Of a DNA stretch of 64,000 bases, positions 9,412 to 63,014 are shown piece by piece. The notes under the pieces were generated by a model. The model did no database searches. It saw only the letters and a program-made list of their open reading frames with translations, and was not told the DNA's origin. The stretch covers positions 15,624,001-15,688,000 of the forward strand of contig JBHGNT010000005.1 of the NCBI GenBank assembly GCA_043228905.1. The letters are read 5' to 3'. This DNA is from Azolla caroliniana. Its lineage: Eukaryota > Plantae > Polypodiophyta. Position 1 is the stretch's first letter; the number at the start of each line of letters is the position of its first letter. The translations under genes and the position numbers were made by a program.

Positions 9412-9777
9412 TCTATAAAAGGATGTATGAAAAGGATCAAAGGGAGGTTATGTTTTGATTCAACAATTTAAGAAGAAGAGAAATTCGTTCTCCAATTGAT
9501 GATATATCTTGTCTCTCGAATCTAAAGTTAAAAATTTGATCTTATCTCTCTCAGTCTCTATCTCTCTCTCACCATCTCAATCTCTCTCCCTCAAACTATC
9601 TTAAATCCTTTCTCGCTAATGCTAGTGGGTGCTTCGAGTCGTTCTGGTCCAGAACCCCGGCGGTTCCGCCTCACGATCCGCACATAGAGACGGATCTTCA
9701 CGACATAATCAAATGGTGAACCTGACGTGAAAGAGGCGGCAGGAAGGATCAAATCGAGGATTAACCGATACTTGGAG

Positions 9778-16968: not shown

Positions 16969-18096
16969 ATGGTTTCATCAATGTGCTACCTCGAGTATGA
17001 GAAGACATTTTTGGATATATGGTCCACTTGGATTCGACTTGTTGGAGGTGTTGAAGATGTATACTTCAAGATGCAAAGATTCAAAGCAGGGCTAGATCCA
17101 TATTTTCAATATGAAGTGCATATGAAGTATCCAAGGTCTTTCCATGATTTGCTTCGAGTATGTCAAAGTTATGATCAACAATTGAAGAAGCTGATATTCG
17201 GTGAAGCATATGGAGTATCGATGTCATATACTATAAATCCAAGCTATGATAATTGTGGATCAGTCATGAGCCAACAACAAGCATACTTGCAATGTCTGAT
17301 TCAACAGGTTCCCTCATATCATTATTCTAATTTTTGGAGTTATGATTATGTCTATGAAGGTGATTCCAAAGACAAAGAAGAAGAGGTGATGAATGTGGAA
17401 TTCCCCCATCTAGTTCATGAGGACAACCATGATACAAAGAATGATGATGTGAAAGACGAATCCAAGGAGATTGTTATGAGAAGCGATGCTATGGATGGTG
17501 ATGCCAATGTACATCATGTTGAGGACATTATTGATACAACAAGCGATATGGTGATTGATGATGAATATGTGCAAGATGAAATGGAAGATATGACAGAAAA
17601 CGTTGTTGATGGTGAAGTACCCACAACAGAATTGCAAGATAAAGAAGGTAACATGGAAGTGATAGCTGGAGATTGTCTTTTTGAGATCAATGCGTGTAAG
17701 GAAGCATTGGTAAGTGCCAAGTTGCAGTGTATGAAGGTGTTTGTGCAAGATTTGTGTTTTGGATTTGCATTGAGTAGCAACAAAGTTATGTGGACATCGA
17801 CTCTTCAACAACAATTTGATCAAGAGCCAAGAGAATTACTTGTAATGCATGATTGGAGTATCATGAACTTATCACCATCAAAGGATCCACAACAACTAAT
17901 CAAATGTATAAAGGAGAAGGAATCATCTATCGACAATGGCAAGCAAGAAGAGGAAAGCATAAAAATTGATGAATCTTCATGGGATAGGGAAAACAAATCA
18001 TTCCACATGGTGTCTAACAAGGAAGAAGAACTCATTCAAGAGAAAAGTATTATGACTTTGGGGGAAAAAGAAAAGATGATTTCCAAAAATATTTGA
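16969..18096 (+). CDS. Gag-like ORF of element B with acidic extension (N-terminus 8507-8566, split by element C)
   Basis: MARYG...LFQLR|MVSSMCYLEYEKTF...RFKAGLDPYFQYEV resembles retrotransposon Gag. The frame rejoins after removing C and its 4-bp TSD. Confidence 0.65.
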   Translation: MVSSMCYLEYEKTFLDIWSTWIRLVGGVEDVYFKMQRFKAGLDPYFQYEVHMKYPRSFHDLLRVCQSYDQQLKKLIFGEAYGVSMSYTINPSYDNCGSVMSQQQAYLQCLIQQVPSYHYSNFWSYDYVYEGDSKDKEEEVMNVEFPHLVHEDNHDTKNDDVKDESKEIVMRSDAMDGDANVHHVEDIIDTTSDMVIDDEYVQDEMEDMTENVVDGEVPTTELQDKEGNMEVIAGDCLFEINACKEALVSAKLQCMKVFVQDLCFGFALSSNKVMWTSTLQQQFDQEPRELLVMHDWSIMNLSPSKDPQQLIKCIKEKESSIDNGKQEEESIKIDESSWDRENKSFHMVSNKEEELIQEKSIMTLGEKEKMISKNI

Positions 18097-19699: not shown

Positions 19700-22600
19700 C
19701 ACTAACTCAGTACAAGTTGGAAATTTGCAACACTGCGCTATTATTGGAATTGACACTATAGAACTTAATCTCCCAGGTGGTTCTAGATTAGTACTACACA
19801 ATGTCTGACATGTACCTGAGCTCTCAAGACCATTGATCTCAGTCGGACAACTTGAGGAAGATGGCATCCATGCTAGCTTCTCATTAGGAGGTTGGACTCT
19901 CCATAGGGGGAACCTCCTGCTTGCTCGATGTCTAAAAGAACATTCTTTGTACCCGCTATATGTCACACTCAAAGAGGGTGACTTGTTCCTGGTTGATATT
20001 CTCATGTCATCACTATGGCATGGACAACTCAAACACCTTAGCAAGGCCAACATAACACATTTATCTAGAGCTGTATACGTCCCCAAACTCTCCTTCTCAG
20101 ATCACTAGTTCTGCGAGCATTGTCAGTATGGCAAGCAAGTTGCGGCCTCACACCCGAAGGCATCACCAAGAGAATTAAATCCACTTGATTTAGTCCATTC
20201 GAACGTTTGTGGCCCTATGCCACATCAGTCTCTCGACAATGCCTTGTACTTCGTTAGTTTTATCGATAACTCGACTCGAAAGGTGTGGGTCAATATGATC
20301 AAAACCAAAGATCGCGTGTTCTCGATCTTCTAAGAATGACTTGCCAAGGTAAGAACCAATCCGGTTGAAATCTGAAATGCTTTTGAACTGACAATAAGGG
20401 ACAATTCAAGTCTGAAGAATTCATCAAATTTTGCTGACAACGTGATATTTGACATGAATATATGGCACCCTATAGTCCGGAGTAGAATGGAATTGCCGAA
20501 CACATGAATCAAACAATTCAAGAACAAATAGTATCCATGCTCCCACACTCCAAACTATCGAATGGCTTCTGGGCAGAGGCCCTACTTACGGTAGTACACA
20601 TATTAACATGTCGCCAAGTAGGCCTCTAAAACTTCAAGTACCTCAGGAATTGTGGATCGACAAGAAGCCGAATTACGACAAGTTGAGGATTTTCGGATGC
20701 GAGGCATATGCCCTCATACCGAAAGACGACTGCCGCAAATTAGAACCGGGGTCTAGGAAATGTATTTTCCTTGGCTATGGACCAGATGGAGAGATCAGAT
20801 ACCAACTTTGGGACCCCGAGCACAGACAGATCTTCCGGATTTTGGAAGTCATGTTCAATGAGTCCGCTATGCACAAGACGGCCGAAAGGCCCATTGAAGT
20901 AAGGTTAATCTTTTTAGATGTGCCGACCCTTCACGAAGGCCGACCCCATAACACGAGGTCAGCTTCACGGGTAGCTAAATACTCTCGCACTGACTCGAAA
21001 ACGCTTGACTCGACACATCTGAATGATTCAGCTTTGGATCATCTGACCCCGACACCTGATGCGACTAGTCCAGCCATACCTCGAAAATCTGAGAGATTGT
21101 CACAACCCCCAAAGAGGTACTCTCATGGAGTCTTCTTAATGGACACCATCAAACTGACGTCATACGAAGAAGCATTGGCATCAACAGATTCGACCACATG
21201 GCATCTGGTGATGGAGTCAAAAACAAACTCGATTCGGGCAAACAAGACTTGGGACTTGGTCTAACTACCAGAAAATCAATGTGCTTTTCCATGCAACTGG
21301 GCCTACAGATTAAAAGAGACGTTTGATTTGGCCACCCCAAAATTCAAGGCCAAATTTGTAGCAAAGGGTTTCCGACAAGAATATGGCGTCGATTTTGACG
21401 AGATCTTTTCCCCAGTGGTAAAAATGACAACCCTTCACTTCATGCTCGACGTTGTGGTAGCTGAGGACCTAGAGTTGATCCAACTAGATGTAAAAACGAC
21501 ATTCCTCCATGGTGACTTAGAGGAGGAAATTTATATGGAGCGGCCGAAAGGCTTTCTGGCATCCGGCCAAGAACATCTAGTCTGCCAAATCAAGAAGAAT
21601 CTATACGGCCTAAAGCAGGCACCGAGACTGTGGTATAAGAAGTTTGACGATTTCATCCAATCGGTCCACTTCTTAAAGAGCAATGAGGACCACTGCCTCT
21701 TCACCAAAACAACTCAAGATGGGTCACCCATCTTCCTCATCATCTATGTGGACAACATGCTACTCTCCAATCGACATGCTGGAGAGCTCGCCAAACTTGT
21801 TTGGCAAATGCGGTCGAAGTTTGTCATGAAGGATCTCGGTCCAGCAAGACACATTCTCGGATGAAGATAAGTTGGAATCAAAATCAACAATAGATGTTTC
21901 TGTCTCAAGCCGACTACATCAAACATGTCTTAGATTGCTTCAACATATAATCGGCCAAATTTGCTTCGACCCCGCTCCCCATTAATCTTCGGCTATCTCA
22001 GCGAGATTTCCGGACATCCGGTCAAGAGGGGGAAGATATGAAGTCGGTACAGTATGCACTGACAGTCGGCTCCTTGATGTATGCAATGGTCGTGACACAG
22101 CCTGATATTGCTCATGCCATTGGAGTCGTCCGTAGATTTATGCACAATCTCGACTGATCACATTGGAACACAATTAAAAAAGTGTTCAGATACCTTGTGG
22201 ACACAAAAGACTATGGCATCTTATTCAGCCCGAATGATACATAAGGCGTAGTCGGTTATACCGACTTAGACTTTGCCGGTTGTGTGGACAATAGAAAGTC
22301 AACCACCGAATATTGCTTCAAATTTGGCAATGGAGCAATCTCATGGAAATCAAAACTTCAGGAGTGCACTACCACATCAACAACCGAGGCCGAATATGTA
22401 GCCACCTCCGATACGGCGAAAGAGGCTTTATGGCTCGGTTGGCTAGCGCACAAGTTTCGACAAGTCGACTCCGACTCGGCTCTAGTTTTCTACAACGACA
22501 ATCAGGGTGCTTTCGCTCTATCTAAAAATCCAGTTCATCACAACGCCTCCAAGCATATTGATGTTCAATATCACTTTGTTCAGGACTATGTCATTTCAGG

Positions 22601-23159
22601 GAAAATCGGCCTCGAGAACATACCTAGAGTTGATAATGTTGCAGATGGGATGACCAAGTGTCTTTCAGAGGATCGATTCCGATCCCTTTGGCACTAGATG
22701 GGCATAGAGAAAAATCAGTCTGATTGAGTCGGACATTTTCGAGGAGCCGAATCAGAGGGCACGACCCCGATGTGAACCGGTAGGCCATTGGAGGTCTACA
22801 CTCCTAGACTACTAGGTAGTTATGATCCTAGGAGTTAGTGTAAGTAGCTCGATACAAGCATTGAAGTACATGTCAGTACTTCTATTAGTCCTTTTAAGGA
22901 CTTGTATAAAAGTGCTCACTAAGCACATTGTATGTACTAAGCATTCATTATTTTGAATTGAGCTTTTGTTGTCTGATCTCTCTCTGTGAAATGTAATATT
23001 TTTGGTCTCATAGATCATATTTGACCTCCGAAGAAGATAATATAATCCATCTATCTATCTCTCACACACACACTCTGTGTATTCCATTCTCTGTGTTTTT
23101 TGTTGTTATCCGGTTGAGCCGGTTGAGGTCTGTTTAGCTTCCGCATTATTTCTTTTACA
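19700..23159 (+). mobile_element. Ty1/Copia remnant E (pre-integrase region, integrase, RT, RNaseH, probable 3' LTR)
   Basis: LISVGQLEEDG, LWHGQLKH, KCIFLGY, QLDVKTTFLHG, YGLKQAPR, IIYVDNML, KHIDVQYHFV; LTR-like end TTCCGCA...TTACA. Boundaries approximate. Confidence 0.85.
22986..23060 (+). mobile_element. 5'-truncated 3' end of the RTEX-like LINE family
   Basis: Matches the 3'UTR at 55311-55388 and carries a (CTAT)n tail. Confidence 0.85.
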
Positions 23160-26100
23160 TATACAAATAATTGGGGTTATCTCCCCCGTGAAAGTAGATT
23201 ACAAATCATTGTGTCAATTCTGATTATAGTGCAATGCTGCAAATTTACGACTCAGTCTAGGCTGAATATTGTCAGAATTGTGATGTGTGAGTGGTCGCGT
23301 GATAGGAAGCGCCCGAATATAAGAGTTATGTGCTCTATTCCTTAGTCATAAGTAGAACTTCTAATTCGACTACATTCTCAATGAATAGTATGTTCGGGTC
23401 ATCTATCAATACCTTGGTTGATGAGTCGACGTAGTTGACCTTGTTTTGTCGGCCACCCTCCGGATCAGCTCGCTGAGCTTTGTCATTCTTTGCTTTGAGG
23501 GCACCTCAGTCGGCCTTGATATGTCTAGGTTTTTTGCTATAATTTCATATCTGACTTTCTTTGTTGGGAAACAGGTCCCTCTGAATGGGATCCGGATGAG
23601 AACCGGACGAGTCGGAGCAGACAACGTGAAGGAAGAAACCGAACCGGATAGATCCGGAAGGTATCCTGTTGGACATATTTGTAATTATGTTCCGATGTGA
23701 CTGTTGAGGTTATAATGTTAAATAGCCCTAAAGTTATATGAGTATAAATATAACTAGGGCAACTGTGTAAGATATAGTGAGTTAGTCGAGAGTGTTGTTA
23801 TTGTTGTACACACAGTGAGAGACAGAGATAGGGAGAGAGATACAGGAAGAATTTTTTGTTCTAACCTCCGTTTGAGGAAGATACAAAGCTCGAGGTCGTT
23901 GCCTCTCAGACTCTTATTTGGAATACCTCTTACCTATAGTGATCCTATTCGGAGTTTTAAAAACTCTCGTGGTTTTTCCCGATTAGGGTTTTCCACGTTA
24001 ATATTCCGTGTCATCTCTTTTCATCTTATTGACTGCATTGTTACTTTCTGTTCAATCTTCCATTTTGAAGTTGCGGATCTCGGTTGTGGCCGAGCACTAT
24101 TTCTATCAATCTGGTATCAGAGCATGGAAGATCCATTCGGTGGCATGTTCAAGTTCACCGGCTTCAACTACCCAATATGGAAGTCAAAGATGGGGGACAT
24201 GTTGGTGTTCATAGATCTTTGGCTACCGGTACCGTTCAGAGATACAAAACCAGACAAGATCGATGCCACGACCTGGGAGTTCATGCACATGAAGACAATG
24301 ACATACATCCGATGCTTCATTAACATGAGCCTATACAATAACTTTAATGTAGAAAACAAGGCCAATCAGCTCTGGGAGAAGATTGACACGATGTTGGAGA
24401 ACAAGAACGCCGTAAATCGGGTCTCGATATTCCGGAAGATAGTGAGGCTCCAGTATCAAGATGGTGCCAACATGGCTGAGCAGATGAACACCTTCCATGG
24501 GATGATAAACCAGACCTCCTCCCTTGAAGTACCGTTAGCCGATGAGGTACTAGTATTGTTATTGCTCAGATCCCTCCAAGATAGCTGGGAGACGTTGGTT
24601 GTCACTTTGGGACATGCCAGACCAGAAGGAAAGAGCTTATCCCTGGCGAGAGTGAAGTCAAGTTTGCTAAATGAAGAAGCTCACCGGAAGGAATGAGAAT
24701 CCGGAACCGATCCGAAGGCCTTGGTTATAGAAGATGACAATAGCCGAGGAAGAGGCCAAAATCGGAGTCCCCAGAACCGAGAAAAGTCGAGCATGAGGTT
24801 AAAGTTAAGGGGGAGGCCCACGTGCTTCTATTATAGGAAGCCGGGGCACTTCCAGAAGATTTGTCGACACTTCCGGATGGAGAAAGGGGGAGCCGGGGCA
24901 CTTCCAGAGGAACGTCGGCAATCGTGACAAGTGAAGAGGAATTGTTGTTTATCACCGAAGAGAGTGACCTACATCTTGTTAGCGACGAAACGACGTGGGT
25001 GTTCGACTCTGGAGCGTCATTCCATCTGACCCCCGACCAGAAGTGCTTCTCATCCTACAGATCCAGAGATCATGGTTGTGTCCGGATGGGGAATGAAGAT
25101 GCATGCCGAATGTGAGCAATAGCGCGGAATAGTGCTTGGCCATAACTGAGCCTTAATCACTCGATGGAAGAAAACAGAGAATAGAAATAAGACGACACAA
25201 GATATTAACGTGGAAAACCCTGATCAGAAAACTACGGGAGCCCATAGAACCCAAACTATCCCTATGAGACGAAGAATACAATGCGAGACTCAAGGCAATG
25301 ACCTCGAGCTGTATGTCTTTGCCAACCAGTAGTTACAACAAAAAATAATAACAACTCCAACAACTACATATATCTCAAGTGATTGCCCTAAGTCATATTT
25401 ATACTTGTATGAGTTTAGGACTATTTACAGATATAGCCATGATAGACACTCTAGAAACATATTTACAGATATGTCCCTAGATCTGGTACACACCTGATTC
25501 ATCCGGATACCTTTCGGATCCGTCCGATCCGGTTCCTTCCTTTAGCTCGTCCTTTCCGTCTCCTCCGGTTCTCATCTAGATCCCATCCGGAGGGACCGAA
25601 TTCCCAACAAGCTCCCCCTACACTCCGGCATGGGATGCTTTGCCAATCCGATCCGTCTCCTGCACACATCCAACTTGTCGGCTGACAACACCTTGGTCAA
25701 CATGTCCGACCCGTTCTCCTCCGTATGGATCTTCGTCAGCAAGAATTCTCTATCTTCTACTTTTTCCCGGAGCCAGTGATATCTCCTCTGGATTGTGCTT
25801 TGTCCGAGAGTGGTAGGTTGCGTTCTTCGTAAGGTGGATTACACTTTGACCATCGCAGTAGAGCCGGAATTCCTCCTACCGGATCGCTCGCTCTCCGATG
25901 AAGTCCTTCATCCAAATTACCTCTTTGCCGGCTTCCACGTCTGCCATATACTCTGCTTCCGTTGTCGACAATGCAACGGACTTCTACAGCCTCGACTGCC
26001 ATGATACGACTCCCCTTGCATATGTCATAACGTATCCGGATGTAGATCAGCGGGTATCTACATCAGTTGACATGTCTGAATCCGTAAAACTTTCTAGCTA

Positions 26101-28361
26101 GAGTTTACCTGAGCCGAATCAGAGGCACACGCTCGAGGTGCCTTTTAAGTACCGGAGTATCCACTTGACCACGGTACAATGTTCTCTTCCTGGATTGCTC
26201 ATAAACCGGCTCACCACTCCGATTGCATATCCAATATCCGGTTGGGTACACACCATTGTGTACATTAAGCTTCCAACAACAGAGGCATATGGTATCTTCA
26301 TCATCTCTTACTTCTCCATCTTGGTCTTCGGACTTTGCTTTCTAGACAGCTTGCAATTCGCCGAAAGTGTTGACCCAACCAGCTTAGCATCCAACATGTT
26401 GAACCTTCGAAACACCTTTGTCATGTACTTTTCATGTGACAACCACAACTGCTTCTTCGACCGGTCCCGAATTATGTGCATCTCTAGGATCTGTCTCGTT
26501 GGACCCATATCTTTCATTGCGAATGACCGGTTCAAAGCCTTCTTCAGCATTCTGATTTTGATACAGTTCCGTCTGACAATCAATATGTCGTCCACATACA
26601 GCAGGAGTATCAGGAAGTCTCCTCTGTCGAACTTCTTCACAAATATGTAGTGGTCAGCCTACGTCTTGTGGTATCCTTGGTCGGTCATGAAGGAGTTGAA
26701 CTTCTGGTACCATTGCCGAGGAGCTTGCTTCAGTCTGTATAAGCTCTTCTTCAACCGGTATACCAGGTGCTCCTTCCCTTTCATGACAAACCCCTCCAGA
26801 TGTTGCATGTAGATCTCTTCTTCGAGGTCACCGTGCAGGAATGCCATATTAACGTCTAGCTGCTCGACCTCAAGGTCCATGCTTGCCGTAAAGCTCAACC
26901 CAGTCCGGATGGATGTCAACTTGACTACCGGGGCAAAGATCTCGTCGAAATCCACCCCCTTTTTCTGCTGGAAGCCCTTCACCATGATCCGGGCTTTGTA
27001 TCTCGTTGGACTTCTGGCGTCTCCAAGTTAGAGCTTGTACACCCACTTGTTCCTAAGTGTTGTCTTTTCTTTCAGCAACTCCATCAATTCATATGTCTGG
27101 TTCTCATGCACGGAATCCATCTCGTCCTACATGGCACTTAACCACTTGCGGTTGTGGGTGTCTTTCTTTGCTTCCTCGAAGCTTTCCAACTCCCCCTCGT
27201 CGATCAGCAACACATGCTTTGCATCCGGAAATCTTTGGGAGATGCCTTCTCTCTCTGAGAGGATATCTCCGTCCTTGATTTTCGACCACCAGTTCCTCCA
27301 TTTGTTCTTCATCCAAATTCGATTCGGGGTCTTGTTCGGTTTCAATGTCCGATTCTTTTTCTTCGACCGATTCGGTTTCTTGTCCGAATTTGGCCGGTTC
27401 TTTGAGTGTCATATGGCTTCCGGCGCAATGGGTCCTTGTGTCTTTCAACCGATCTTTGTCGGTCGACCTGGAGTCCACTATCTTCTTCTCCGACTCCCAG
27501 TTAGCAATTGTCTTGTCTTCCCTGAAGACTATGTCTCGACTCCGAAAGACCTTCTTGTCAACCAAGTCCCACACTCAGTACCCGAAGTCATCATCGCCGT
27601 ATCCAAGGAATATGCATGGCCGGGACTTCGGATCGAATTTCGTTCTCTTGTCCTTTGCAACATTTACATAAGCGAGACAACAGACCACCTTCAAATGCTA
27701 GTAAGACACATCTTTACTAGTCCATACTCTCTGCGGTGTGTCTCCGTCCAAGGGTGTTGAGGGTGTTCTGTTAATCACGTATGTCGCCATCATCAGCGCC
27801 TCAGCCCAAAACGTCTTGGGTAACTTGGCATGTACCAACATGCTCCAGACTCTCTTTATCGCAGTCCAGTTCATCCTTTTGACCAATCTGTTCAGCTCCG
27901 GTGTATTCGGCATGGTAAATTCAATCTAGATTCCCTTTGACTGGTAGTACTCCTCAAACTTCCCCCTCCGTTGTCCGCTCGAACTGCCTTCAACTTCCGG
28001 CTAGTTTCCCTTTCCACTCTCGCATGGAATTCCTTGATGCGGACAACACCTAAGCCTACTTCTTCAACTGTGAGACCCACAACTTCCGGTTGTGGTCATC
28101 TATGAACATCACGAAGTACTGTGATCCGGCATGTGACTTCCTGTCCACTTGGCATACATTGGTATGCACAATTTCCAACGATGCATTCCATCTTGACGGT
28201 CGTCGGGTTTGGAAGGAGGTTTGGTTCTGCTTGCCGGCCAAATAGTCAGTGCACTTCTCAAGCTACATGTCTTTCACCTCTGGAATAGATAGATAGATAG
28301 ATAGATTATATTATCGTCTTCGGAGATCAAATATGACCTATGAGACCAAAAATATTACATT

Positions 28362-31300
28362 TCACGTGATACGTGTGAAAGTGAGTAGTGACTCTCGATG
28401 TTCAAGAACTTTACCAAGGAATGTTGCAATCGAGAGTGCACATTGTGGTTGTGAGAGGAATTCATGCAAAGATTGGGCTCGATCGAAGAGATGTGGAAAG
28501 CATGGTCGAATATGATCAAAGGCAGAGCATTGTATCAAAGTGTGATACTCAGACTCGCGAACTTGTTTAGGGCAAAGTGTGCATAGCCGACCACTCTCAT
28601 CACTTGTACCCCAACGCCCTGTTTCACATCGCAATGCATGTGAGCTAAGTCGCATGGAAGCAATGGTTCGAATGGCAGATAACGGTATGGGCTCTAACAT
28701 GTATGGATGTGTACGATTTCCCCTTTCCGCGAAGAATATGGTTTTGTAGTTAGGTGCAACATGTGTAGTATAATGTGTGAAGCGTGAGCCTCCACATTTG
28801 TCCCATGTCATGATACATTGGCGTTGCAAAAATGCCTCATTTACAGAGGAATCTAATGATGCATCATGAAGCAAGTGTCTCGCATCCCATCTACCAAACC
28901 ATTTTTCTATATCTTGCATCCAACCGGAACACAAAATTTTGCTTTTATGCGTCTTTTGGATCTTTTTGCTTGCTTCCCACGCAATTCTAGGAAGTCGATG
29001 TGAGGGACTTTTTTGAACCTTAAGCATGTATTCAACAACCCTTTCCATGGCCATGATCTCAATGGGAAGCGATCCCGTCTCAAGGAGGAGGAGGGTGTAG
29101 GGCGTTTGTTTCTTAACTTGTAGAAACTTGGTAAGAAAATGCTTTTGGACATTTTCAAACTCTTTCCACATAGACTTAGGGATGCTACCACCCCAACACT
29201 TAATATCTCTTGAGGACCCAACACTTAATATCTCCAAGATTGCATGTGTTCTCAAATGCATAGTATGCTCGTTTGCCCGCCTCTAAGCGGCGTGTAGCAC
29301 ATTCATTCCATCTATGATTTGAAGGAACTTCAAGGCCAAGATATTTGAAGCTTTCCACACATTCAAGTGGCTCATTGTTGTACATAATGCATGGTTTATC
29401 TCTTTTTTGGCTCTTCACAAGCATAATCTTTGTTTTAGAGCTATTGACACTTAATTTAGTATGCATGCAAAATTTTTCCAATGCCTTCATAAGCTTTTGT
29501 GCATCTCCTAAAGTATTTGCAAAAAGCACTACATCATCTGCATATAGCAAAAGCATAATCACAACATTCCCAATGGCAACTTCTTCAACACATTCTTCCT
29601 TTGCAAACTTGGTAACCATTTCTTCCAATTCATCAATGCATAGACCAAATAGTGTTGGTGAGAGTGGGCATCCTTGCTTAACACCAATAGTGCTTTTGAA
29701 AAAATCTGAAAGTTTATCTCTCATGCGCACACAACATATAACCTTCTCATAAATTCGGGAAATTGCAAGCATATATTCACTTGGCACCTCAAGTTCTTCC
29801 ATTCGCCTCCAAAGATGCTCACGAGGTACCATATCAAAAGCTTTCTTGAAGTCTACAAAGCAACAATATAAACCTTTACCTCTAAGGCGACTTTCCTCCA
29901 TTAATACTCGAAGGGTGATAAGGTGATCAATGGTGCTATGGTGTTTCCGAAAGCCAGCTTGTCCATAAGCTCTCTTACCACTTTTTTCAGCCCATACACT
30001 TATCTTTGATTCCATTATACATCCAAATAGTTTTGCCATTAATGAGCCAACCATGATGGTTCGATAGTTGTTTACATTATTTATATCTCCACCTTTATGT
30101 AAAGGTTTGATCCAATTTGTAGTCCAATCGTACGGCATACCATGTTGCAATGCATCATTAAACATATCTCTTATCCATATATGTGCTTCCTTTCCCGTCC
30201 ATTTGAGCATTTCAGCCTTTATACATTGAAGATCGCTTGCCTTTCGAGAGGCCAATTTCTTAAGTCCTATGCATATATCTTCAATTGTAAAGAAGGAAGG
30301 CATATGTGAAAGAGAACCATAACACATCATCTTTCCGGCAAGAGATAACTCATATAAATTCTTACAATGCATAGACAAGTCATGAAGAGTTAAGTCACCA
30401 TAACTCTCAACACGTTTTCCCTTTAGATTTCCCCAAAATTTAGCACATGCATGTGCTTTCTCTTGCGTTTGGATAAATTGTTGAGTAACTTCCCATATTC
30501 TTCTCTTTCTTTGAATAAGCCTTTTATACTCATGCAAATGCTTTTGGTAATTCTCTTTATCCTTAACTACATCCAAAACCATAAGGCACTTTCGAGCTTC
30601 ACGACATTCTTTATCAAACCATTTTTTCCTAAGTTTCTTGGTGCATTTCCAAGATGTGCGGTTGGTCGAAAAACATTTGTTTGTACATGAGAGAATGACT
30701 TTCTTGAAAGCTTCCCATTTGCATTCTAGTGTGGCACCATGTTGTATCTTTGTCATTTGTAACATATCCTCAACCATCTTGGAATACATGGGTGCTCGCT
30801 TAAGGTTCATGCTCAAGTGCGGTTGTTTATTATCTTCAATAGCCTTCTCACAATCAAACCTATGCATACATTTGAGATCAATACATAAAGGCCTATGATC
30901 TGATTCCGGTGTCCATTCACCAAGTGAGAATTTATGTATACGATCCAAAATACCTTCGGAAAGTAGCACATAATCAATCACACTATTTCCGTTGTATTTT
31001 CTACATGTAAAACCATTAGTGTTGGGCCATAAGGAAATACCATTTGCAATAAGCAATCCGGTACTATTGCACATTTGTAGGAGTAACTTCCCAAATTGGT
31101 CCGGATCTTTTTCATCACTAGAAGAGCGGTTATACATTTGCATATCCTCTTGCATCCTTGAGATATGTGGCATGAAAGATTCTTGTGAATCAAGTTGGAA
31201 ACTTCGTGTACGAGCATTCATGTCACCAAAGACAATAACTTCCCCTTTGGATTTGAAATAAGCAATATCATCTTCTAGATTGGCAAACAGTTGATCTTTA

Positions 31301-31695
31301 TCCAAACACGCATAAAAGTTAGAATCTTGATGAGGAATGTAACATCCAACAACAAAAGTGGGCAAATCATTAGGTGTTTCTATTTTGAGCCATATGTAGC
31401 ATTTATTTTCATCATTTTTTATGATTGACACATATTTCTCTATTTCCTTCTTAATCAAACATGCCACCCCTCCTTGTCCTCTTCTTTGTCTTGGATTTTT
31501 CTTCCATATCAAAGAGTGTACATTATAGTTTCCTAAACCTTGAATCCTTTGAGTATCATGCTCCCATGTTTCAACAAGAAGTGTGATATCCGAGTCATTG
31601 GTGAACTCCTCTATGCCAAATCCCGCATTCCATGGGTATCCATTGCAGTTCCAAAAGCATAGTCGTAAAAGGCGTGGGTTAGTCTCATAGATCAC
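28362..31695 (-). pseudogene. LINE ORF2 (APE endonuclease, RT, C-terminal CCHC-like domain) with one frameshift scar near 29200
   Basis: WNCNG, LVETW, GDMNA, IDY, SDH (EN); VDFKKAFD, QGCPLSP, YADD, KYLG (RT); RLSSH..ETGRW, CTLC..H..C. The start codon is GTG here and ATG in the sister copy at 61361. Confidence 0.9.
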
Positions 31696-31701
31696 GTGTC
31701 C

Positions 31702-32571
31702 CTATTTGCCTACATTTCCATCTTTAGGCACATCCTTAACCTTGTTTTTCAATCTTTCTTCATATGCTTTACGACGAGCATTTTGTTGTGAGATAGTACG
31801 ATCTTCACTCACAAAGCATTGTGTACCTTTCAGGTATACCCAACTATTTTCGAGTATGATCCGCCGCTTTGTATCATCTGTCATTGTACATACAATAGGC
31901 CTTTCTCCGGAGCGAGTAACACCATGTTTCCCAACTCGGTGTGCCCCATATACATTCACATCTGACATCCCATAATGCATGCTAAAAAATTCACCAATGG
32001 CCTTTCCAAGGGATGCGGGTGTTTCCATACTCTCTTCTTTAATCCCACGGACGACAATGTTCTTTGATCGTCGTTCGCGTTCTTTCAATTCTCGGACATC
32101 TATGCTTTCTATATTCTTCTCTTGATGCATCACCTGCATATTAGATGAGTTTGATAACACATCCCCACCACATACATCGGCCCATGACTTCGTTGTACAT
32201 ACATTTTTCATCTCACTTACATCCCGCCTCATCGTGTCCAATTTTTCTTCTTTTAATGCTTCCTTTAACTCAATCTTGTTAAGGCGCTCATTTGTTTCAA
32301 ATGAAGCTCTTTTACATTCTTGAATCTCTTCTTGAAGTTTTGCAACCACTTGTTTAAGACTTTCATTCTCAATGACAACACTTTGGAGCTTAGTATTCTC
32401 TTTCATTAACATCCTAATCTCTTCACCTTGCTTGTTTATGGTTTCTTGAAGAGAAATCAAGTGACTCATAAGCATTTTGTCCATTGCATTAGAATCGATA
32501 TTTGTTGGTGATCTCGGCTCATTATCAATCATACCCCCAAACTTTGCGGCGGTTTTACGAGTATTTGCCAT
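31702..32571 (-). CDS. LINE ORF1 (coiled coil plus RRM-like nucleic-acid-binding domain)
   Basis: 289 aa open frame; RERRSKNIVVRGIKE...AHRVG...RPIV...VSEDRT motifs typical of LINE ORF1p. Confidence 0.85.
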   Translation of the reverse strand: MANTRKTAAKFGGMIDNEPRSPTNIDSNAMDKMLMSHLISLQETINKQGEEIRMLMKENTKLQSVVIENESLKQVVAKLQEEIQECKRASFETNERLNKIELKEALKEEKLDTMRRDVSEMKNVCTTKSWADVCGGDVLSNSSNMQVMHQEKNIESIDVRELKERERRSKNIVVRGIKEESMETPASLGKAIGEFFSMHYGMSDVNVYGAHRVGKHGVTRSGERPIVCTMTDDTKRRIILENSWVYLKGTQCFVSEDRTISQQNARRKAYEERLKNKVKDVPKDGNVGK

Positions 32572-35500
32572 TGTAGGGACAAACCGTACGGGAAAAGAGA
32601 GACAAAGAGGGAAGGAGAGAGAATATACCTTTCACTCGATTTAGGGCTTCAAAATCTACCTTCCGTTTGAGGAATCGTGGGGCAAAGATGGCTGCGGATG
32701 AAAATGCTCATAACTTCTCGCCACGTTAACAGAATTCAGTAAATGAACATTCTTTAGAAAGCTCTCTCAAAGAGCTTTCCAACGAGCTATAGAACGTAGA
32801 AAACGATGGCCGGAGTGAACTTACAGAGAGCTTTGAAAGAGAGAGAGAGAGAGAGAGAGAGAGGAACACAGAGAATACGCAAGGAATGAGGTTATCTTCG
32901 GCAAGTCTCTGCATTCCCTTCTGGCTCATGTGCCACAACCTCTTGTGCCACAACTCACTGGCATTGTAATCTGGGCATGCATCAAGTACAGAGTGTTGAT
33001 CTTCCAGGCTCAGGCCACAATCAAGCTTCCTTTGCTGAACTTCATGACTCTGTTCCCGATGCTACCCATGTAGCCTTCCTCATCTAGCCGATCGGCTGAT
33101 ATCAAGTTCAACCGACCCTACGGAATGTGTCGGACATCCTTCAACAACAACTTGCACCCGATTGACTTCATCAGCAACACATCTCCTATGCCGACAATTC
33201 GGCATGCACCTTCATTTCCCATCGGGACAGAACCGTGATCGCCGACTTTGTATGATGCGAAGCACTTCCGGTCGGGGGTCAGATGGAATGACACGCCGAA
33301 GTAGATCACCCATGTCATTTCATCGCTAACAAGATGCAACTCACTCTCCTCGGTGATTAGCAGCAGTTCTTCTTCACTTGTTGCGATTGTCAATGTTCCT
33401 TTCTGATCCAAACTCCTCTGGTCCGGACTCTTCTTCGAGTCGACATTGTCGGTTCCTTTCTTCTTACGGAAGTGTCGGCAATTCTTATGGACAAGCCTTG
33501 GCTTTCCGCAATAAAAGCAAGTGGGCCTCCCCCTTGGGTTCGACCTCATCCCCGATTTGTCCCGGTTTTGGGGACTCCGATTCTGGCCTCTTCCTCAGTT
33601 ATGGTCGTCTTCCATAACCAAGGCCTTCAGATCAGTTTTGGACTCCCAGTCCTTCCGGTGAGCTTCTTCATCCAGTAAGCTTGATTTTACCCTTGCCAGG
33701 GACAACTGTTTTCCTTCCGGCCCGGTGTTGCCCAATGTGACAACTAGCGTCTCCTAACTATCCCGGAGGGAACCAAGCAGGAGCAACACAAGTACCTCGT
33801 CGTCTAGAGGTACTTCCAGCGAGGTTGTTTGGTTTATGAGCCCCTGGAAAGCATTCAAGTGCTCTGCCATACTCGATTTGTCTTGATATCGGAGTCTCAC
33901 TAACTTCTGGAATACCGAAAGCTGATTTATGACGTTTTTATTCTCCAACATGGTACCGATTTTCTCCCAAAGCACATGAGCCTTGCTTTCTTCATTGAAG
34001 TTGTTGTACAGGCTCATGTCGATGAAACACCTAATCTATTCCATCGTCTTCATATGCATCACCTCCCACGTTGTGGCATCGATCTTGTCTGGTTTCTTGT
34101 CCCCGAGCTATACCGGAAGCCAAAGATCTTTGATCACAAGCATGTCCCTCATCTTCGACTTCCACACTGAATAGTTGGAGCCGGTGAGCTTGAACATGTT
34201 TCTGAATGAATCCACCATTTGTTGTTCACTCTGATACCAGTTTCTGAGGAATAGCGCGGAATAATGCTCAGCCACAACCGAGTCTTGATCACTTGATGGA
34301 AGAAAACAAAGAATTGAAAGAAGACGACACAAGATATTAACGTGGAAAACCCTGATCGAGAAAAACCACGAGAGCCCATAGAATCCAAACTGTCACTATG
34401 ACAGGAAGAATACAAATTGAGACTCAGAGGTAACGACCTCAAGCTCTATGTCTTTGCCAACCGGTAGTTACAACAGAAAATGCTTTCTGTTTCTATGTTG
34501 CTCTCTCTGTGTCTCTCTCTATACAATAATAACAACTCCAACAACTACATATATCTCAAGTGCCCTAAGTGATATTTATACTTTTATGACTTTAGGGCTA
34601 TTTACATATATAGCCATGATAGACACTCTAGAAACATATATACATATATGTCCCTGGATGCAATTCACACCGGATTCATCCGGATACGATACCTTCCGGA
34701 TCTGTCCAATCTGGTTCCATCCTTTGGCTCATCCAATCTAGCTTGTCCGGTTCTCATCCGGATCCCATCCGGAGGGATCGAATTCGCAACACCGAATTGT
34801 TGGCATAGGAGACGTATTGCTGATAACGTCAACCGGGTGCAAATTGTTGCTCAAAGTTGTCTGACACGTTCCAGAGGTTCGGTTGAACCTGATATCGGTC
34901 GGTCGGTTGGATTATGAAGGCTTCATGGGTAGCATCCGGAACAGATTTATGAAATTCGGCAAAGGAAGCTTGATCGTGACCCAAGCCCGAAAGATCAACA
35001 TGTTGTACTTGATGCATGCCAGGATATGTCGGGAAGAAGTGAACATGGTATCCAACACTGCTGGTGAGTTGTGGCACAATAGGTTGTGCCTCATGAGCCA
35101 GAAGGGAATGTGGAGACTTGCCAAAGATAACCTCATTCCGGAGGTGAAAGACGTGCAACTCTAGAAGTGCACAGATTGTTTGGTCAGCAAGCAGAACCGA
35201 ACCTCTTTCCGGTCGAGACCACCGTCAAGATGGAAAGAACCACTAGCGCTTGTGCATACCGATGTATACTAGGTGGACACGAAGTCACATGCTGAGCCGT
35301 AGTACTTCGTGACGTTCATAGATGACCACAACCGGAAGCTATGGGTCTCACCACTGAAGACGAAGGATCAAGTACTGACCATCTTCAAGGAGCTCCATGC
35401 AAGAGTGGAAAGAGAAACCGGCCGGAAGCTGAAGGCAATTCGAGTCGACAATGGTGGAGAGTACCGGGAGCAATTCAAGGAGTACTGTGAGTCGAATTTA

Positions 35501-36807: not shown

Positions 36808-37328
36808 TATTTAGTTGAAATTATATTTCTATCATTGTACTTTTACATGTAAGTTCTCATACATGAGAGCTAAAATGAGTGACATGGTTATCATGCACCA
36901 CATGTAATACATAAGCGCCAAATGGCAAACATGCAATTTATGCATGTCTTGTACCCTCACATGGATCATATGCATGAGAGCATCTATAAAAGAATGAAGG
37001 GGGAGGAGAAAAAACACGTTTTTTTTTATTATGAAATTAAGAAGAAGAAATTCGTTATCAAATTGATGGTGTAACTTGTTTCTTAAATCCGAAGATAAAA
37101 GTTCAATCAATCTTTCTCAATCGTTTAATCTCAACTTCTCTCTTTCCCAATCTATCTTAAGTACTTTCTCGCCAAAGCTTGTATCGACTTTGAATCCTTT
37201 CGGTCCAGAACCCCGGCGGTTCCGCCTCACGATCCGCGCGTAGTGACGGATCTTCACGACATAATTAAGTGGTGAACCCGACGTGAAAGAGGCGGTAGGA
37301 AGGATCAAGTCGAGATTAATACTTGGAG

Positions 37329-45465: not shown

Positions 45466-45840
45466 AGAAAATGTTTTTGGACATTTTCAAACTCTTTCCA
45501 CATAGATTTAGGGATGCTACCGCCCCATACTTCCACCCCATAGAGAAGAACCGGTGTCACCAAAGTGTCAAAAAGATATTTCTTGAGGACCCAACACTTA
45601 ATATCTCCAAGATTGCATGTGTTCTCAAATGCATAGTATGCTCGCTTACCCGTCTCTAAGTGGCGTGTAGCACATTCATTCCATCTATGATTTGAAAGAA
45701 CTTCAAGGCCAAGATATTTGAAGCTTTCCACACATTCAAGTGGCTCATTGTTGTACATAATGCATGGTTTATCTCTTTTTTGGCTATTGACAAGCATAGT
45801 CTTTGTTTTAGAGCTATTGACACTTAATTTAGTATGCATG
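45466..45840 (-). mobile_element. Internal ORF2 fragment of the RTEX-like LINE
   Basis: MHTKLSVNSSK...FENVQKHF is nearly identical to 29140-29466. Confidence 0.9.
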
Positions 45841-54360: not shown

Positions 54361-55388
54361 AGGCAAGCGAGCATACTATGCATTTGAGAACACATGCAAT
54401 CTTGGAGATATTAAGTGTTGGGTCCTCAAGAAATATCTTTTCGACACTTTGGTGACACCGGTTCTTCTTTATGGGGTGGAAGTATGGGGCGGTATCCCTA
54501 AATCTATGTGGATGAGTTTGAAAATGTCCAAAAGCATTTTCTTACCAAGTTTCTACAAGTTAAGAAACAAACGCCCTACACCCACCTCCTCCTTGAGACG
54601 GGATCACTTCCCATTGAGATCATGGCCATGGAAAGGGTTGTTGAATACATGCTTAAGGTTCAAAAAAGTCCCTCACATCGACTTCCTAGAATTGCGTGGG
54701 AAGCAAGCAAAAAGATAAAAAAGACGCATAAAAGCAAAATTTTGTGTTCCGGTTGGATGCAAGATATAGAAAAATGGTTTGGTAGATGGGATGCGAGACA
54801 CTTGCTTCATGATGCATCATTAGATTCCTCTGTAAATGAGGTATTTTTGCAACGCCAATGTATCATGACATGGGACAAATGTGGAGGCTCACACTTCACA
54901 CATTATACTACACATGTTGCACCTAACTACAAAACCATATTCTATGCGGAACGGGGAAATCGTACACATCCATACATGTTAGAGCCCATATCGTTATCTG
55001 CCATTCGAACCATTGCTTCCATGCGACTTAGCTCACATGCATTGCGATGTGAAACAAGGCGTTGGGGTACAAGTGATGAGAGTGGTCGGCTATGCACACT
55101 TTGCCCTAAACAAGTTCGCGAGTCTGAGTATCACACTTTGATACAATGCTTTGCCTTTGATCATATTCAACCATGCTTTCCACACCTCTTCGATCGAGCC
55201 CAATCTTTGCATGAATTCCTCTCACAACCACAATGTACACTCTCGATTGCAACATTCATTGGTAAAGTTCTTGAACATCGAGAGTCACTACTCACTTTCA
55301 CACGTATCATGTGAAATGTAATATTTTTGGTCTCATAGGTCATATTTGACCTCCGAAGACGATAATATAATCTATCTATCTATCTATC
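54361..55388 (+). mobile_element. 5'-truncated RTEX-like LINE copy
   Basis: Near-identical to the 3' 1 kb of the 28287-32882 element, with (CTAT)n tail; follows a long (CT)n at 54311-54356. Confidence 0.93.
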
Positions 55389-58319
55389 TCTTTGGTAAAA
55401 GCACACAATTATATTAATTGTATGTAAAATCCACTTAGTTACAACACATCTTAGTCTCCTCTACCCATCATATGCATATGTAGGGAGAGGGACGTCTTGT
55501 AATGTGTTGTAGACCCCAATAACGTAAAAATTGGAACAATATCTCCATCTCATCATTTGAACCATTTTGAACATATTGAGAAAAAACCTAGTGTTGAGCT
55601 CTCAAACAACAACAAGTTAAAACTTGCCAAATGTCTGATAAGTACTTCCAAATGGTACACGCTATAGGACATTTAATGAACCTATGTGTACTATCCTCCA
55701 ATGGAACGGTGCAAAAGAAACAAGTGCTAGACCCTAGTCCTCGTCTCTTTAAGGCCGAACCTAATGGGAGCCCTCCAATCATGACTCTCCATACGAATAC
55801 CTTTGCACGAAATGGTAGATGGGAATGCCAACGCTGTAATATTTTCCACCACCTTGCATCTGACTTACATACACTCCACAACTTCACTGCTTTAGGAGAT
55901 AGCCAAGATAATGATGCCATCACATGATGATACATAATATTTGTAGTGACCTGTAACAAGAGTGTACCATCTTGTAACCGCCAATCCACCCAAGGTGCAA
56001 AATTTGTTTTCAATGGCAAAGATCCTTGCAACAATGGTATATCTTATAATTTCTCCCAAATAAATCCATAATTTGGGGGAATACATAACCATCGCTTGAC
56101 ATCTTCAAAATACGACAAACTTTGAGATTCATTATCAACCACATCTTCCAAATGTACAATCCCTAATCGAAATAAACGATTGAATTGAGATCTCAACTTC
56201 TCTTTCCCATGCCAAAACAACACTCGAGAAGAAACAAGCAATTCATTTTGTAATGAATTACAATATTCTCGATCACTTGATCCTCCCCATTCAAAAAGAG
56301 ATAATGCATCTTGCCACGATCTTACCAAATGTTGTCCACATACAGAATGTCGAATCTTTAGAGGAATACTTCCATTGAGTAATGACCATTAGGATGCTTG
56401 AATCTTTGTTTTCCCGTGCACCAATCCTTCATGCTCAATAAAATAGTGCATCATAGATATCCATGGTTGATCTTGTTGACATATATCTCGTAATAATGCA
56501 AATCTATGAGCCATCAAATGCCTTTCCAAATCCAATATTGCTGCATCACCTAACCCTTAAGGAGTAGCCAAATGGTCCCATGAAATCCATGTAACTCCCA
56601 TCATTTCTCCCTTCCACCACAACATGAAACGAATAGGTTGTAACATGTTTTGTAATTCCTTCTTCGTCCAAGGTAGTAAAGGCAAAAAATATAATAACAT
56701 GGGTATCAAGATACATTGCACCAGTTTGAGTCGTACATGAAAGGGCCATAATTGAGACTTCCAATAAATAAAATTTTCCTTCAATTTACTACCAATCCAA
56801 TCAATCAATTGAACATTTGTAACATCAACACCCAATGGATAACCCAAATGTCGATAAATTGGTCCTCGTGTAATCACTGACCCTCGCCATCCCAAACATT
56901 CCAAATCACTCTCCGTACAAGAAATAAGGCAAGACTTCCTCCAAATTATATACAAACCTGAAGCCAAAACAAATTGATCCCAAACTTTCATACTCCTTTT
57001 AAGATTTTCTTTTGAGGCTTGTAAAAACATAAAAGAATCACTGGCTAATGCTTGTGCCACCAATTGTCCACTAGAAGGAAGATGCAAACCCACAATATCA
57101 CCACTGGTGACAAGTTTTGACAACATTACTAACAAAGGATGTGTACAATAGCAAATAACAATGGGCTTAGTGGACATCCTTGCCGCACGGATCTAGTAAG
57201 AAACACTTTCGGAGTAACTCCACCATTAACCATCACACCCAAGGTTGCATTTTGCCCTAGCAAAAAGATAAGTCGACACATACGTGAACCAAACCCCATA
57301 TTATACATCACATTTTAGAGGAAAGACCAATTAACATGATCATATGGTTTTTCCAAATCTAATTGCACCATAATCATTTCTTGATGTGTATGTCGAGCAT
57401 AATTGGTAGCCATTTGAACATTCAAAACATTATGCAATATATTTCTACCTATAATAAAACCATATTGAGATGGATGAATAAGTTGAGGTAAGAACTTCTA
57501 AAGTCTGTTGGATAATACTTTGCAAACACTTTGTACAACCCTCCCATCAATGAAATAGGCCTTCATTGATGAAATGACTTTGGAGATGGTACCTTTGGTA
57601 TTAATTTGATAAAGCCCACCTTCCAGCTCTCAAGCATGAAACCAGAATCTCAACATTGTTGAAACATTTGTGTGAATGGAATCTTAAGCATTCCATCATA
57701 CTTGTTAAAAACTTCATTTGTAACACCATCCCAACCAGGGCTTTTACCATTTGGAAGGTGTAACAATACCTTTTCCACCTCAGCTTCTTTAAAATCAACA
57801 TCCAATTCTTGACAAATATTTGTATTCATGACACTCCCAATTACATCATAAAACTCTTGTTGTGCTTTCAACACACATTAATAATCAACTCTAGCCCAAT
57901 CAAATTCTTAAAATGAGTAACACATAGCTCAATAACCTTGATTGGCTCTACAATAATGTCATCCCCTATCTGAATTTGTACCACATTTGAACGAGCATAT
58001 GGTGGTCTTAATCCTTGACAAAACATATGAGATTGTGATTGATTATCTATAAATCCCTCCTTTAATTGACATAGTCATGTTTGTTGATAACTTTGACAAG
58101 AAAAATTCTTCACAATGTCCTGTACTTCAACTTGAACATCCAAAAGCTCTTCATCATAAATATTATTCATCAATAGTACATTGTATCTTGTAAGAATATA
58201 TGAAAACTTATAAATCAATTTCTTACGTCTTTAAGCATTAGTCATACCATACATACGATGAATATCATTGATGTTTTGTAGTGTTGTATCCCATTGTAAA
58301 GAATCAGGTATGATTCTTG

Positions 58320-61255: not shown

Positions 61256-62500
61256 TGTACTATCTCACAACAAAATGCTCATCGTAAAGAATATGAAGAA
61301 AAATTGAAAAATAAGGTTAAAGATGTGCCTAAAGATGGAAATGTAGGCAAATAGGGACACATGACCTATGAGTCTAACCATGCCTTTTACAACTATGCTT
61401 TTGGAATTCCAATGGATACCCATGGAATGCAGGATTTGGCATAGAGGAGTTCACCGATGACTCAGATATCATACTCTTGTTGAAACATGGGAGCATGATA
61501 CTCAAAGGATTCAAGGTTTACAAAACTATAATGTACACTCTTTGATATGGAAAAAAAATCCAAGACAAAGAAGAGGACAAGGAGGGTGACATGTTTGATT
61601 AAGACGGAAATGGAGAAATAAAAAATGATGAACATAAATGCTATATATGGCTCAAAATAGAAACACCTAATGGTTTGCCCACTTTTGTAGTTGGATGTTA
61701 CATTCCTCATCAAAATTCTAACTTTGATGCTTGTTTGGATAAAGGTCAACCTTTTGCCAATCTAGAAGATGATATTGCTTATTTCAAATCCAAAAGGGAA
61801 GTTATTGTCTTTGGTGACATGAATGATCGTACAAGAAGTTTCCAACTTGATTGACAAGAATCTTTCATGCCACATATCTCAAGGATGCAAGAGGATATGC
61901 AAATGTATAGCCACTCTTCTAGCAATGAAAAAGATCCGGACCAATCTGGGAAGTTACCCCTACAAATGTGCAATAGTACCGGATTTCTTATTGCAAATGG
62001 TATTTCCTTATGGCCCAACACTAATGGTTTTACATGTTGAAAACACAACAGAAATAGTGTGATTGACTATGTGCTACTTTCTGAATGTATTTTGGATTGT
62101 ATACATAAATTCTCACTTGGTGAATGGACACCAGAACCCGATAATAGGCCTTTATGTATTGATCTCAAATGTATGCATAGGTTTGATTGTGAGAAGGCTA
62201 TTGAAGATAATAAACAACCGTACTTAAGCATGAACCTTAAGCGAGCACCCGTGTATTCCAAGATGGTTTAGGATATGTTACAAATGATAAAGATACAACA
62301 TGGTGCCACACTAGAATGCAAATAGGAAGCTTTCAAGAAAGTCATTCTCTCCAATACAAACAAATGTTTTTTGACCAACCGCACATCTTCGAAATGCACC
62401 AAGAAACTTAAGAAAAAATGGTTTGATAAAGAATGTCGTGAAGCTTGAAAGTGCCTTATGGTTTTGGACGTAGTTAAGGATAAAGAGAATTACCAAAAGC
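61256..62500 (+). mobile_element. RTEX-like LINE fragment (ORF1 end plus ORF2 endonuclease), decayed
   Basis: TISQQNA...DGNVGK* then ATG at 61361; colinear with 30540-31799 up to KENYQK. Confidence 0.92.
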
Positions 62501-63014
62501 AGGTCATGAAGTGAAAAATCTCTATAAGTTTAATACATTCAAATTTTGGTATTAACCATGATAAGAAACCTATATACTAAGACAAATTGGATTATTGTTG
62601 GATGTGGTGAACAAACAAAAGGTTGACAATAGACCTCAAAAGTACTTGTTGGTTAAGACAACAACAAGAGCTACTATGATGAACAAATCCAAGGTAAAAT
62701 CCATGCATCAAGCAATATCGAGCTGTCTTTTAAAAGTGCATTTAGAAAAACCTAATCACAAATTGTTGTTCCTATTATATGATACCCAATATACAACATT
62801 ATGTTGCAAAGTAAGCCTTGTTAACCACTTTGTGAAAGGTCACAGAGTTGTTGATTTACTTTATGTGAGAACTTTATGCACAAGGTCATGAAGTGAAAAA
62901 TCTCTATAAGTTTAATACATTCAAATTTTGGTATTAACCATGATAAGAAACCTATATGCTAAGACAAACTGGATTATTGTTGGATGTGGTGAACAAACAA
63001 AAGGTTGACAGTAG
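62501..63014. repeat. 382-bp tandem repeat (about 1.3 copies), inverted relative to 45841-46822
   Basis: AGGTCATGAAGTGAAAAATC at 62501 and 62883; reverse complement of the left array. Confidence 0.95.

Follow-up and report, generated by a model that had tools for sequence, protein, structure and literature searches.

The DNA analysed here, referred to below as the window, is a 64,000-nucleotide (nt) stretch of Azolla caroliniana contig JBHGNT010000005.1 (positions 15,624,001–15,688,000), in which a 4.6-kb long interspersed nuclear element (LINE) lies on the minus strand at 28287–32882. The element carries two open reading frames (ORFs), ORF1 and an ORF2 encoding endonuclease and reverse transcriptase (RT), and its host site is a Copia-type pol sequence. 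Based on the sequences and on folding models, we consider it probable (roughly 0.65) that the enzyme of this LINE is made as an ORF1–ORF2 fusion by programmed readthrough of a single UAG, which would be stimulated by a helix between the junction and the tail that competes with a terminal hairpin. The common frame of the two ORFs, the identity and context of the stop codon, the absence of a conserved start codon, the complementarity of the two arms and its specificity to each family are read directly from the sequences. The features of the element are as follows.

28287..32882, minus strand: full-length LINE copy, ORF1 and endonuclease/RT ORF2, inside Copia-type pol sequence
32883..32887, minus strand: target-site duplication ATTCC, 5 bp, left copy
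28282..28286, minus strand: target-site duplication ATTCC, 5 bp, right copy
31702..32571, minus strand: ORF1, 289 aa, last residue Lys; N-terminal half coiled-coil-like, C-terminal half homologous to the ORF1 of ferns and of the distant relative L016
31696..31707, minus strand: AAA TAG GGA CAC, with one in-frame stop (31702–31704) in type III context UAGGGV and a 6-nt spacer
31679..31695, minus strand: proximal arm, +7 to +23 past the stop; first codon GTG (ATG in a minority of copies)
28362..31701, minus strand: ORF2, with apurinic endonuclease (APE), RT and a C-terminal CCHC motif, in the frame of ORF1; broken in the window copy near 29200–29225
28333..28349, minus strand: distal arm, within a 3' untranslated region (UTR) of about 55–56 nt
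28324..28339, minus strand: local hairpin AGGTCA-TATT-TGATCT (predicted), which shares bases with the distal arm; other copies have TGACCT
28287..28306, minus strand: (ATCT)5 tail

The assignment to the LINEs follows from the scores of PF03372 and PF00078 in ORF2, both above cut-off (APE endonuclease and RT), together with the lack of long terminal repeats (LTRs), the (ATCT)5 repeat tail, the ATTCC target-site duplication and the presence of 5'-truncated sisters in the window. The Pfam and PDB matches of ORF1 are coiled-coil proteins only, and domain searches of the element's proteins found no protease domain. The element may belong to the RTE-X (RTEX)/Proto2 group, although our tree holds no named RTEX or Proto2 reference; the 289-aa ORF1 and the ATCT microsatellite tail fit features of RTEX that are not unique to it. 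RTEX elements have a substantial ORF1, in which they differ from RTE, and a microsatellite tail other than poly(A) (PMC3747384, among the RTE-X sources). In the reads, depth at the 3' end of the window's LINE family is about 25 times that at the junction.

The junction between ORF1 and ORF2

The junction reads ...GGC AAA TAG GGA CAC GTG ATC TAT GAG ACT AAC, with ORF1 and ORF2 in one frame. The type III readthrough motif is UAGGGV, UAGGUA or UAGGAU (PMC13517186), and the element has both type III (Beier–Grimm) characters, namely ORFs in frame across a single stop and a UAG GGA that matches UAGGGV. An earlier, sequence-only reading had taken the ORF1 stop to be ordinary and the codon 6 nt beyond it to be the start of ORF2, with the helix possibly controlling initiation there. 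The conserved feature is instead the in-frame TAG 6 nt upstream of this supposed start. In the close family, which was sampled from the window, 14 metagenome loci and the contigs of four sequencing runs (four organisms), the 'start' codon is GTG at 82, 75, 99 and 100% of depth in the four runs and ATG at 17.6, 25, 1 and 0%, and no indel in the spacer occurs among the rows listed for the junction in these runs. The metagenome junctions show GTG in four of five cases (L001, L003, L004 and L007), the ATG form being that of the high-coverage contig L002. In mutated copies the covered codon encodes Val or Ala: P0051 spans the junction uninterrupted as K-Y-G-Q-V-T-Y-E-T-N, P0052 has Ala in place of Val at this codon, and P0001 (66% identical) retains T-Y-E-T-N. 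With GTG at 75–100% of depth and Val or Ala in the mutated copies, control of ORF2 initiation by the helix finds no support.

Lys is the last residue in 11 of 41 ORF1 homologs, many of which are annotated proteins of the fern Adiantum nelumboides; these 11 belong to the close group, and the tail before their Lys varies. Apart from nine more distant ones, to which we return below, the others are truncated or run off. Two plant LINE ORF1 proteins, P0033 and P0041, are annotated as Enterobacter hypothetical proteins, an instance of public-assembly contamination. No fused ORF1–ORF2 protein of 586–2000 aa was present among 7991 scored candidates, which is weak evidence. Searches of viral contigs with the close-family alignment and the junction pattern, and of genome contigs with the close-family alignment, gave nothing useful, and the plasmid search gave one match, covering the RT only.

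The same layout was found in distant relatives. A profile built from 48 related ORF2 proteins gave 198 relatives on contigs that are filed in bacterial assemblies but are evidently eukaryotic host DNA, and the best 80 were kept. Loci from viral contigs (L015 and L096–L107) were left out. The N-terminal end of ORF2 is present, and the junction readable, in 40 relatives. In 33 of these, 100–690 open in-frame codons precede ORF2, where chance would give about one third, and the stop at the junction is TAG in 33 of 33; the readable ORF2 ends (n = 22) are TAA in 14, TGA in six and TAG in two. Position +4 is G in 28 of the 33 in-frame relatives and, by hand count, the exact type III hexamer is found in 14. 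In the segment that leads from the stop to the first endonuclease strand, 28 of the 33 have no ATG, 20 have none of ATG, CTG, GTG, TTG and ACG, and eight have no near-cognate codon at all, a distribution that speaks against an ORF2 start codon here. L078 is a natural fusion of 1487 open codons with TTC at the site of the TAG of its 72%-identical sister L073; L049 has TGA at the junction, 26 codons from the upstream edge of its contig; and the Met of L072 corresponds to Thr in its sister L091. Many loci stem from few host samples, yet they represent different families (ORF2 identity 26–76% in the pairs checked). In a quick tree without named references, each of the large branches contained the TAG type; L016, L032, P0005 and the window's family formed a set with 95% support.

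These data bear on three other accounts of the junction. Termination followed by reinitiation at the GUG/AUG 6 nt past the stop, with the helix gating or positioning the start, is in our judgement improbable. In its favour, L1 is able to dispense with its AUG. The codon in question lies within the helix, and ATG occurs in the copy at 61 kb, in L002 and at up to 25% of depth; reinitiation is moreover used by SART1 and L1, in SART1 with a downstream structure (PMC5972666). However, a conserved start near the ORF1 stop, as in SART1 or L1, was not found, GTG being in the majority beside Val and Ala variants, and the change of CACGTG to CACATG follows the direction expected of CpG decay (other CpG sites in the same run as the junction ATG lie at 4–21%). 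The lack of ATG in 28 of the 33 in-frame relatives, and of any near-cognate codon in eight, argues in the same direction, as does the natural fusion L078, and reinitiation would require neither a fixed frame nor a fixed TAG.

A conserved 3' splice acceptor at TAG|G, with ORF2 expressed from spliced RNA, is considerably harder to credit. YAG|G is the acceptor consensus and the +4 G of the 28 relatives resembles it; however, there is no pyrimidine tract (a fraction of 0.42 in the 20 nt upstream of TAG versus 0.43 in ORF1, and 0.2 in the window's element), splicing would not require the ORF1 frame, and L078 has no AG at the site. Least credible of the accounts considered here is A-to-I editing of the UAG to a tryptophan codon guided by the helix, as in hepatitis delta virus. 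The amber codon does adjoin a long duplex, and the mutated copy P0049 can be read as TGG at the stop (as judged from an alternative frame). Against this, the stop codon lies outside the helix and plants are not known to have ADAR. Edited RNAs would moreover give rise to numerous copies with TGG, but TAG is retained in all 33 relatives and TTC stands at the site in the fusion. We also rejected a variant genetic code in which TAG is a sense codon, since the only TAG in these frames, which far exceed 1000 codons, is the one at the junction.

Three observations on the relatives stand apart from these questions. Many of the loci L016–L095 are full-length eukaryotic LINEs on bacterial-filed contigs, again public-assembly contamination. 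A tandem repeat of about 35 nt follows the stop in L078:326–4786 (compared with L073:754–756). Long in-frame linkers between TAG and endonuclease occur in L057:1546–2450 (about 300 codons), L051:560–850 (96) and L041:1566–1770 (68).

Predicted pairing of the junction with the 3' end

Four further copies of the element in the window enter the comparison.

61257..62501, plus strand: sister fragment with the junction, TAG at 61352–61354 and ATG at 61361; 93% identical
54362..55389, plus strand: 5'-truncated sister copy with distal arm 55327–55343, hairpin 55338–55351 and tail
22986..23060, plus strand: 3'-end fragment with the TAGATCAT variant
45466..45840, minus strand: internal ORF2 fragment; 85% identical

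The 17-nt complementarity put forward in the sequence-only reading is borne out: TTGGTCTCATAGGTCAT (28333–28349, minus strand) pairs with GTGATCTATGAGACTAA (31679–31695, minus strand) through 14 Watson–Crick and three G-U pairs, with a duplex energy of −23.5 kcal/mol for arms 3.3 kb apart. The proximal arm begins 6 nt past the ORF1 TAG at 31702–31704, the sister junction ATGACCTATGAGTCTAA is present at 61361 with one U-U mismatch to the arm pairing, and the hairpin GGTCA-TATT-TGACC is present at 55338–55351. It had also been proposed that C-G and U-A versions of one pair exist in the family. The TAGATCAT variant is indeed found at 23011 (arm from 23002), but no single copy shows the U-A pair: G-U stands at this position in the one copy that has both arms, and the A variant comes from an isolated 78-bp fragment. 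U-A was not accepted as a compensatory pair in the window's family, T at 31691 making up about 59% of depth in a single run and at most 1% in three; the loose-end consensus of the reads retains G in the 3' arm, with low agreement. As for the local hairpin proposed to be mutually exclusive with the helix, it is predicted and overlaps the distal arm, but the region has no clear folding advantage over shuffles (z = −1.3 and −1.6).

The junction–tail helix is the strongest of 41 uninterrupted helices of at least 13 bp in the 4.6-kb element. Two-strand folds favour it by 8–24 kcal/mol for the junction of the window's element (18 kcal/mol with its own 3' UTR), and for the junction region alone shuffles fold about equally well (z = +0.9 and −0.3). 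A bare helix of this kind is not rare, since eight of 60 whole-element dinucleotide shuffles hold an equally strong one somewhere and 30 of 60 hold one of at least 17 bp; the rarity lies in its position. Between an 81-nt junction window and the 56-nt 3' UTR, a window picked post hoc, 17 bp were reached in one of 5000 shuffles and the duplex energy in 26 of 3000.

The pairing was then scored across families, all junctions against all 3' regions, for those 22 in-frame relatives in which ORF2 is complete and followed by 40 nt or more (the other 11 of the 33, which have no 3' end, were dropped). Own junctions pair with own 3' regions better than with those of other families (p = 1e-5 for 23 elements including the window's), the own-pair diagonal being 3.5 kcal/mol better than expected and eight of 23 elements ranking their own partner first, whereas control windows covering the 30 nt before the stop and +61 to +90 gave p = 0.36 and 0.69. 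The signal persists without the window's element (p = 2e-5, 22 relatives) and without the window's element, L016 and L088 (p = 0.0014). In L016, which has 32% ORF2 identity and a homologous ORF1, TGTGGGAGTCATAGAG pairs with CTCTATGGCTCCCACG over 16 bp (−27.9 kcal/mol), and L088 has a 13-bp helix (−24.4 kcal/mol). Both helices are unrelated in sequence to that of the window's element, each joins the best partners in the whole element, and both distal arms lie 7–11 nt before an (ATTG)n tail. In L045, L048, L051 and L069 a GGCCG-type box pairs with a GGCC hairpin adjoining the 3' end. Six relatives whose end can be recognised have a predicted local hairpin that shares bases with the distal arm; that of the window's element is not significant against shuffles.

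In the comparison with relatives suggested by the sequence-only reading, family-specific helices occur in distant relatives, but about ten of the 22 show no signal. Because cross-pairs match own pairs within two sister groups, the covariation is one of whole helices and not of single base pairs. What stands of the proposed long-range switch is its architecture, as a prediction, because the junction–tail pairing is family-specific and overlaps a predicted terminal hairpin; its control of initiation does not stand. That the complementarity in the window's family is an accident with no function appears quite improbable. The shuffles that match the helix speak for it, as do the lack of a compensatory change in the family itself (window, metagenome loci and contigs of the four runs) and the minimum-energy fold of the 4.3-kb RNA, which retains the local hairpin and not the long-range helix. 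Against it stand the positional test and the pairing of independent families, window excluded, at the same position with unrelated sequences.

Some further observations concern the arms. The full-length copy has C-to-T changes in both alternative partners of the 3' UTR G at 28337, namely 31691 in the long-range helix and 28326 in the hairpin; the paired change may keep the two forms balanced, although in one copy chance decay is possible. A second helix of 14 bp (−16.4 kcal/mol) is predicted between 31226–31239 in the endonuclease coding region and 28310–28323 at the end of the 3' UTR, and is within the chance range. In L035, L039, L043, L044, L046, L047, L058 and L061 about five codons separate the TAG from the conserved endonuclease W-N motif; the subgroup is mostly without a clear 3' partner and possibly uses a different stimulator.

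Proposed mechanism and comparison with known systems

In the proposed mechanism, the UAG would terminate most ribosomes, giving an excess of ORF1 protein. With the tail bound at +7 to +23, some 11–12 bp of the helix would be positioned at the mRNA entry channel, which lies 11–12 nt past the A site (PMC13517186), and a few ribosomes would decode the UAG. As they moved on, these ribosomes would displace the tail from the junction, and the terminal hairpin, which is probably what the RT recognises, could refold for the new RT on the same RNA. Enzyme synthesis would in this way be limited to RNAs with an intact 3' end and action in cis would be favoured. Type III contexts generally require a downstream structure, that of the tombusvirus Carnation Italian ringspot virus (CIRV) requiring an interaction over more than 3.5 kb (PMC13517186; PMC3234231), and stringent LINEs have 3'-end stem-loops that are recognised (PMC3747384). 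Because the distant relatives repeat the layout with different sequences, the predicted RNA bridge likely aids readthrough rather than masking a start. For the LINE clade as a whole, from plants to marine invertebrates, the proposal that RT is made by amber readthrough switched on by the element's own 3' end seems to us to have slightly less than an even chance of being correct.

The closest parallel is the proximal and distal readthrough elements (PRTE–DRTE) of CIRV (PMC3234231), with which the LINE shares the UAG GGA context, a polymerase made as a readthrough fusion, a plant host, pairing with the 3' end over about 3.3–3.5 kb, and a distal arm that overlaps a mutually exclusive 3'-terminal structure (predicted in the LINE). 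The mechanism set out above is that proposed for CIRV, down to the elimination of truncated RNAs and the preference for cis (PMC3234231). The CIRV signal did not work when placed in a dual-luciferase construct (PMC3234231). One system is a virus and the other a non-LTR retrotransposon whose arrangement is predicted from sequence; in addition, a large stem-loop presents the PRTE as a bulge (PMC3234231), whereas the LINE has a plain predicted 17-bp helix of intermolecular type from +7. Because the LINE junction folds no better than shuffles, its signal would work like a PRTE but is not one. The gag–pol of Moloney murine leukaemia virus likewise has a structural protein and an RT in one frame across UAG GGA, with the ratio set by a structure 3' of the stop; there, however, this is a local pseudoknot after an 8-nt spacer and the fusion is cut by a protease, whereas the partner strand in the LINE is 3.3 kb away (PMC13517186, PMC5009743). 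SART1 and mammalian L1 share a bicistronic LINE RNA and unconventional ORF2 expression, in SART1 with a structure downstream of the junction, but SART1 has an overlapping stop–start and L1 a 63-nt spacer and AUG, in place of the conserved TAG, fixed frame and usual lack of AUG seen here (PMC5972666). The RTE-X/Proto2 group, which occurs in ferns, green algae and molluscs, has the long ORF1, the ORF2 with APE and RT and the microsatellite tail (PMC3747384, PMC3905857, PMC6890710, PMC10294476); in the available parts of these four sources there is no mention of readthrough or of an in-frame stop, and those of PMC11203168 and PMC12477816 contain no readthrough precedent either.

A role for the helix other than stimulation, with readthrough itself being real, is unlikely but deserves serious consideration: it might repress readthrough, form a loop by which the new RT is delivered to its own 3' end, or protect the RNA from nonsense-mediated decay. 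The readthrough signs of the 33 TAG relatives persist in the approximately ten of 22 families without a detectable helix, the helix begins nearer to the stop than known stimulators, and the recognition of 3'-end stem-loops by stringent LINEs (PMC3747384) would suit a loop of this kind. The pairing signal is, however, limited to the first 30 nt past the stop, where readthrough stimulators act, and type III contexts usually depend on a downstream structure (PMC13517186).

Stimulated readthrough has to be set against several findings that weigh against it, beginning with those already given: ATG at 18–25% of depth in two runs and in the high-coverage contig L002, the global fold and the lack of compensatory change. 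In five of the 40 readable relatives the ORFs are out of frame or separated, and nine more distant ORF1 homologs of the 41 end in T, A or E, not K. In about ten of the 22 relatives own pairing within 800 nt of the ORF2 stop has no advantage over cross-family pairing (all of them apparently animal-host families, many with contigs that lack a defined 3' end), and in two sister groups cross-pairing equals own pairing. Positions 28314–28344 are not represented in the comparison with the runs, probably as the contigs are cut at the tail repeat, and this segment was not counted as conserved because a difference present in every other copy also went unlisted there. The helix starts at +7 (+4 in L016), nearer to the stop than the 8-nt spacers of animal viruses, and the junction of the window's element, unlike that of CIRV, has no predicted proximal stem-loop. 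Finally, as far as the sequences go, the pairing could either raise or lower readthrough.

How LINE ORF2 is translated and how the ORF2 protein finds its own RNA are long-standing questions. The mechanisms that reviews of recoding give for non-LTR elements are reinitiation and 2A skipping (PMC5972666, PMC5009743), and in searches of the open literature we found no paper on LINE stop-codon readthrough or junction-to-tail pairing; what is predicted here is a known viral recoding strategy in an element class for which no description of it was found. Readthrough steered by the 3' UTR would add another mode to reinitiation (L1, SART1) and 2A skipping, and would link translation to cis-preference. 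If the proposal is correct, a device made of RNA only licenses the enzyme on full-length RNA and frees the RT-binding hairpin on ribosome passage, which would explain cis-preference, and plant RNA viruses share their RNA logic with a genomic retroelement. The endonuclease/RT of the clade would then carry ORF1 at its N-terminus, which matters for element engineering and for annotation, where ORF2 starts are currently called at arbitrary internal codons.

Surroundings of the element and its fragments

Three 5'-truncated copies in the window (22986, 54362 and 61257) start immediately past a (CT)n run, and in L007:1–270 a 3' end leads into (CT)n and then into the 5' part of another copy; a preference of the LINE for (CT)n targets is possible from these positions. 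Internal LINE fragments at 45049–45480 and 62503–62900 are both flanked by the same unrelated repeat (CAAGGTCATGAAGTGAAAAATCTC...), which suggests that they were captured inside, or interrupted by, another repeat. The remainder of the window (9709–18096, 20476–27760 and 37320–43323) is mostly decayed LTR retrotransposon with Copia gag, SH3-like domains and RT/RNase H/integrase.

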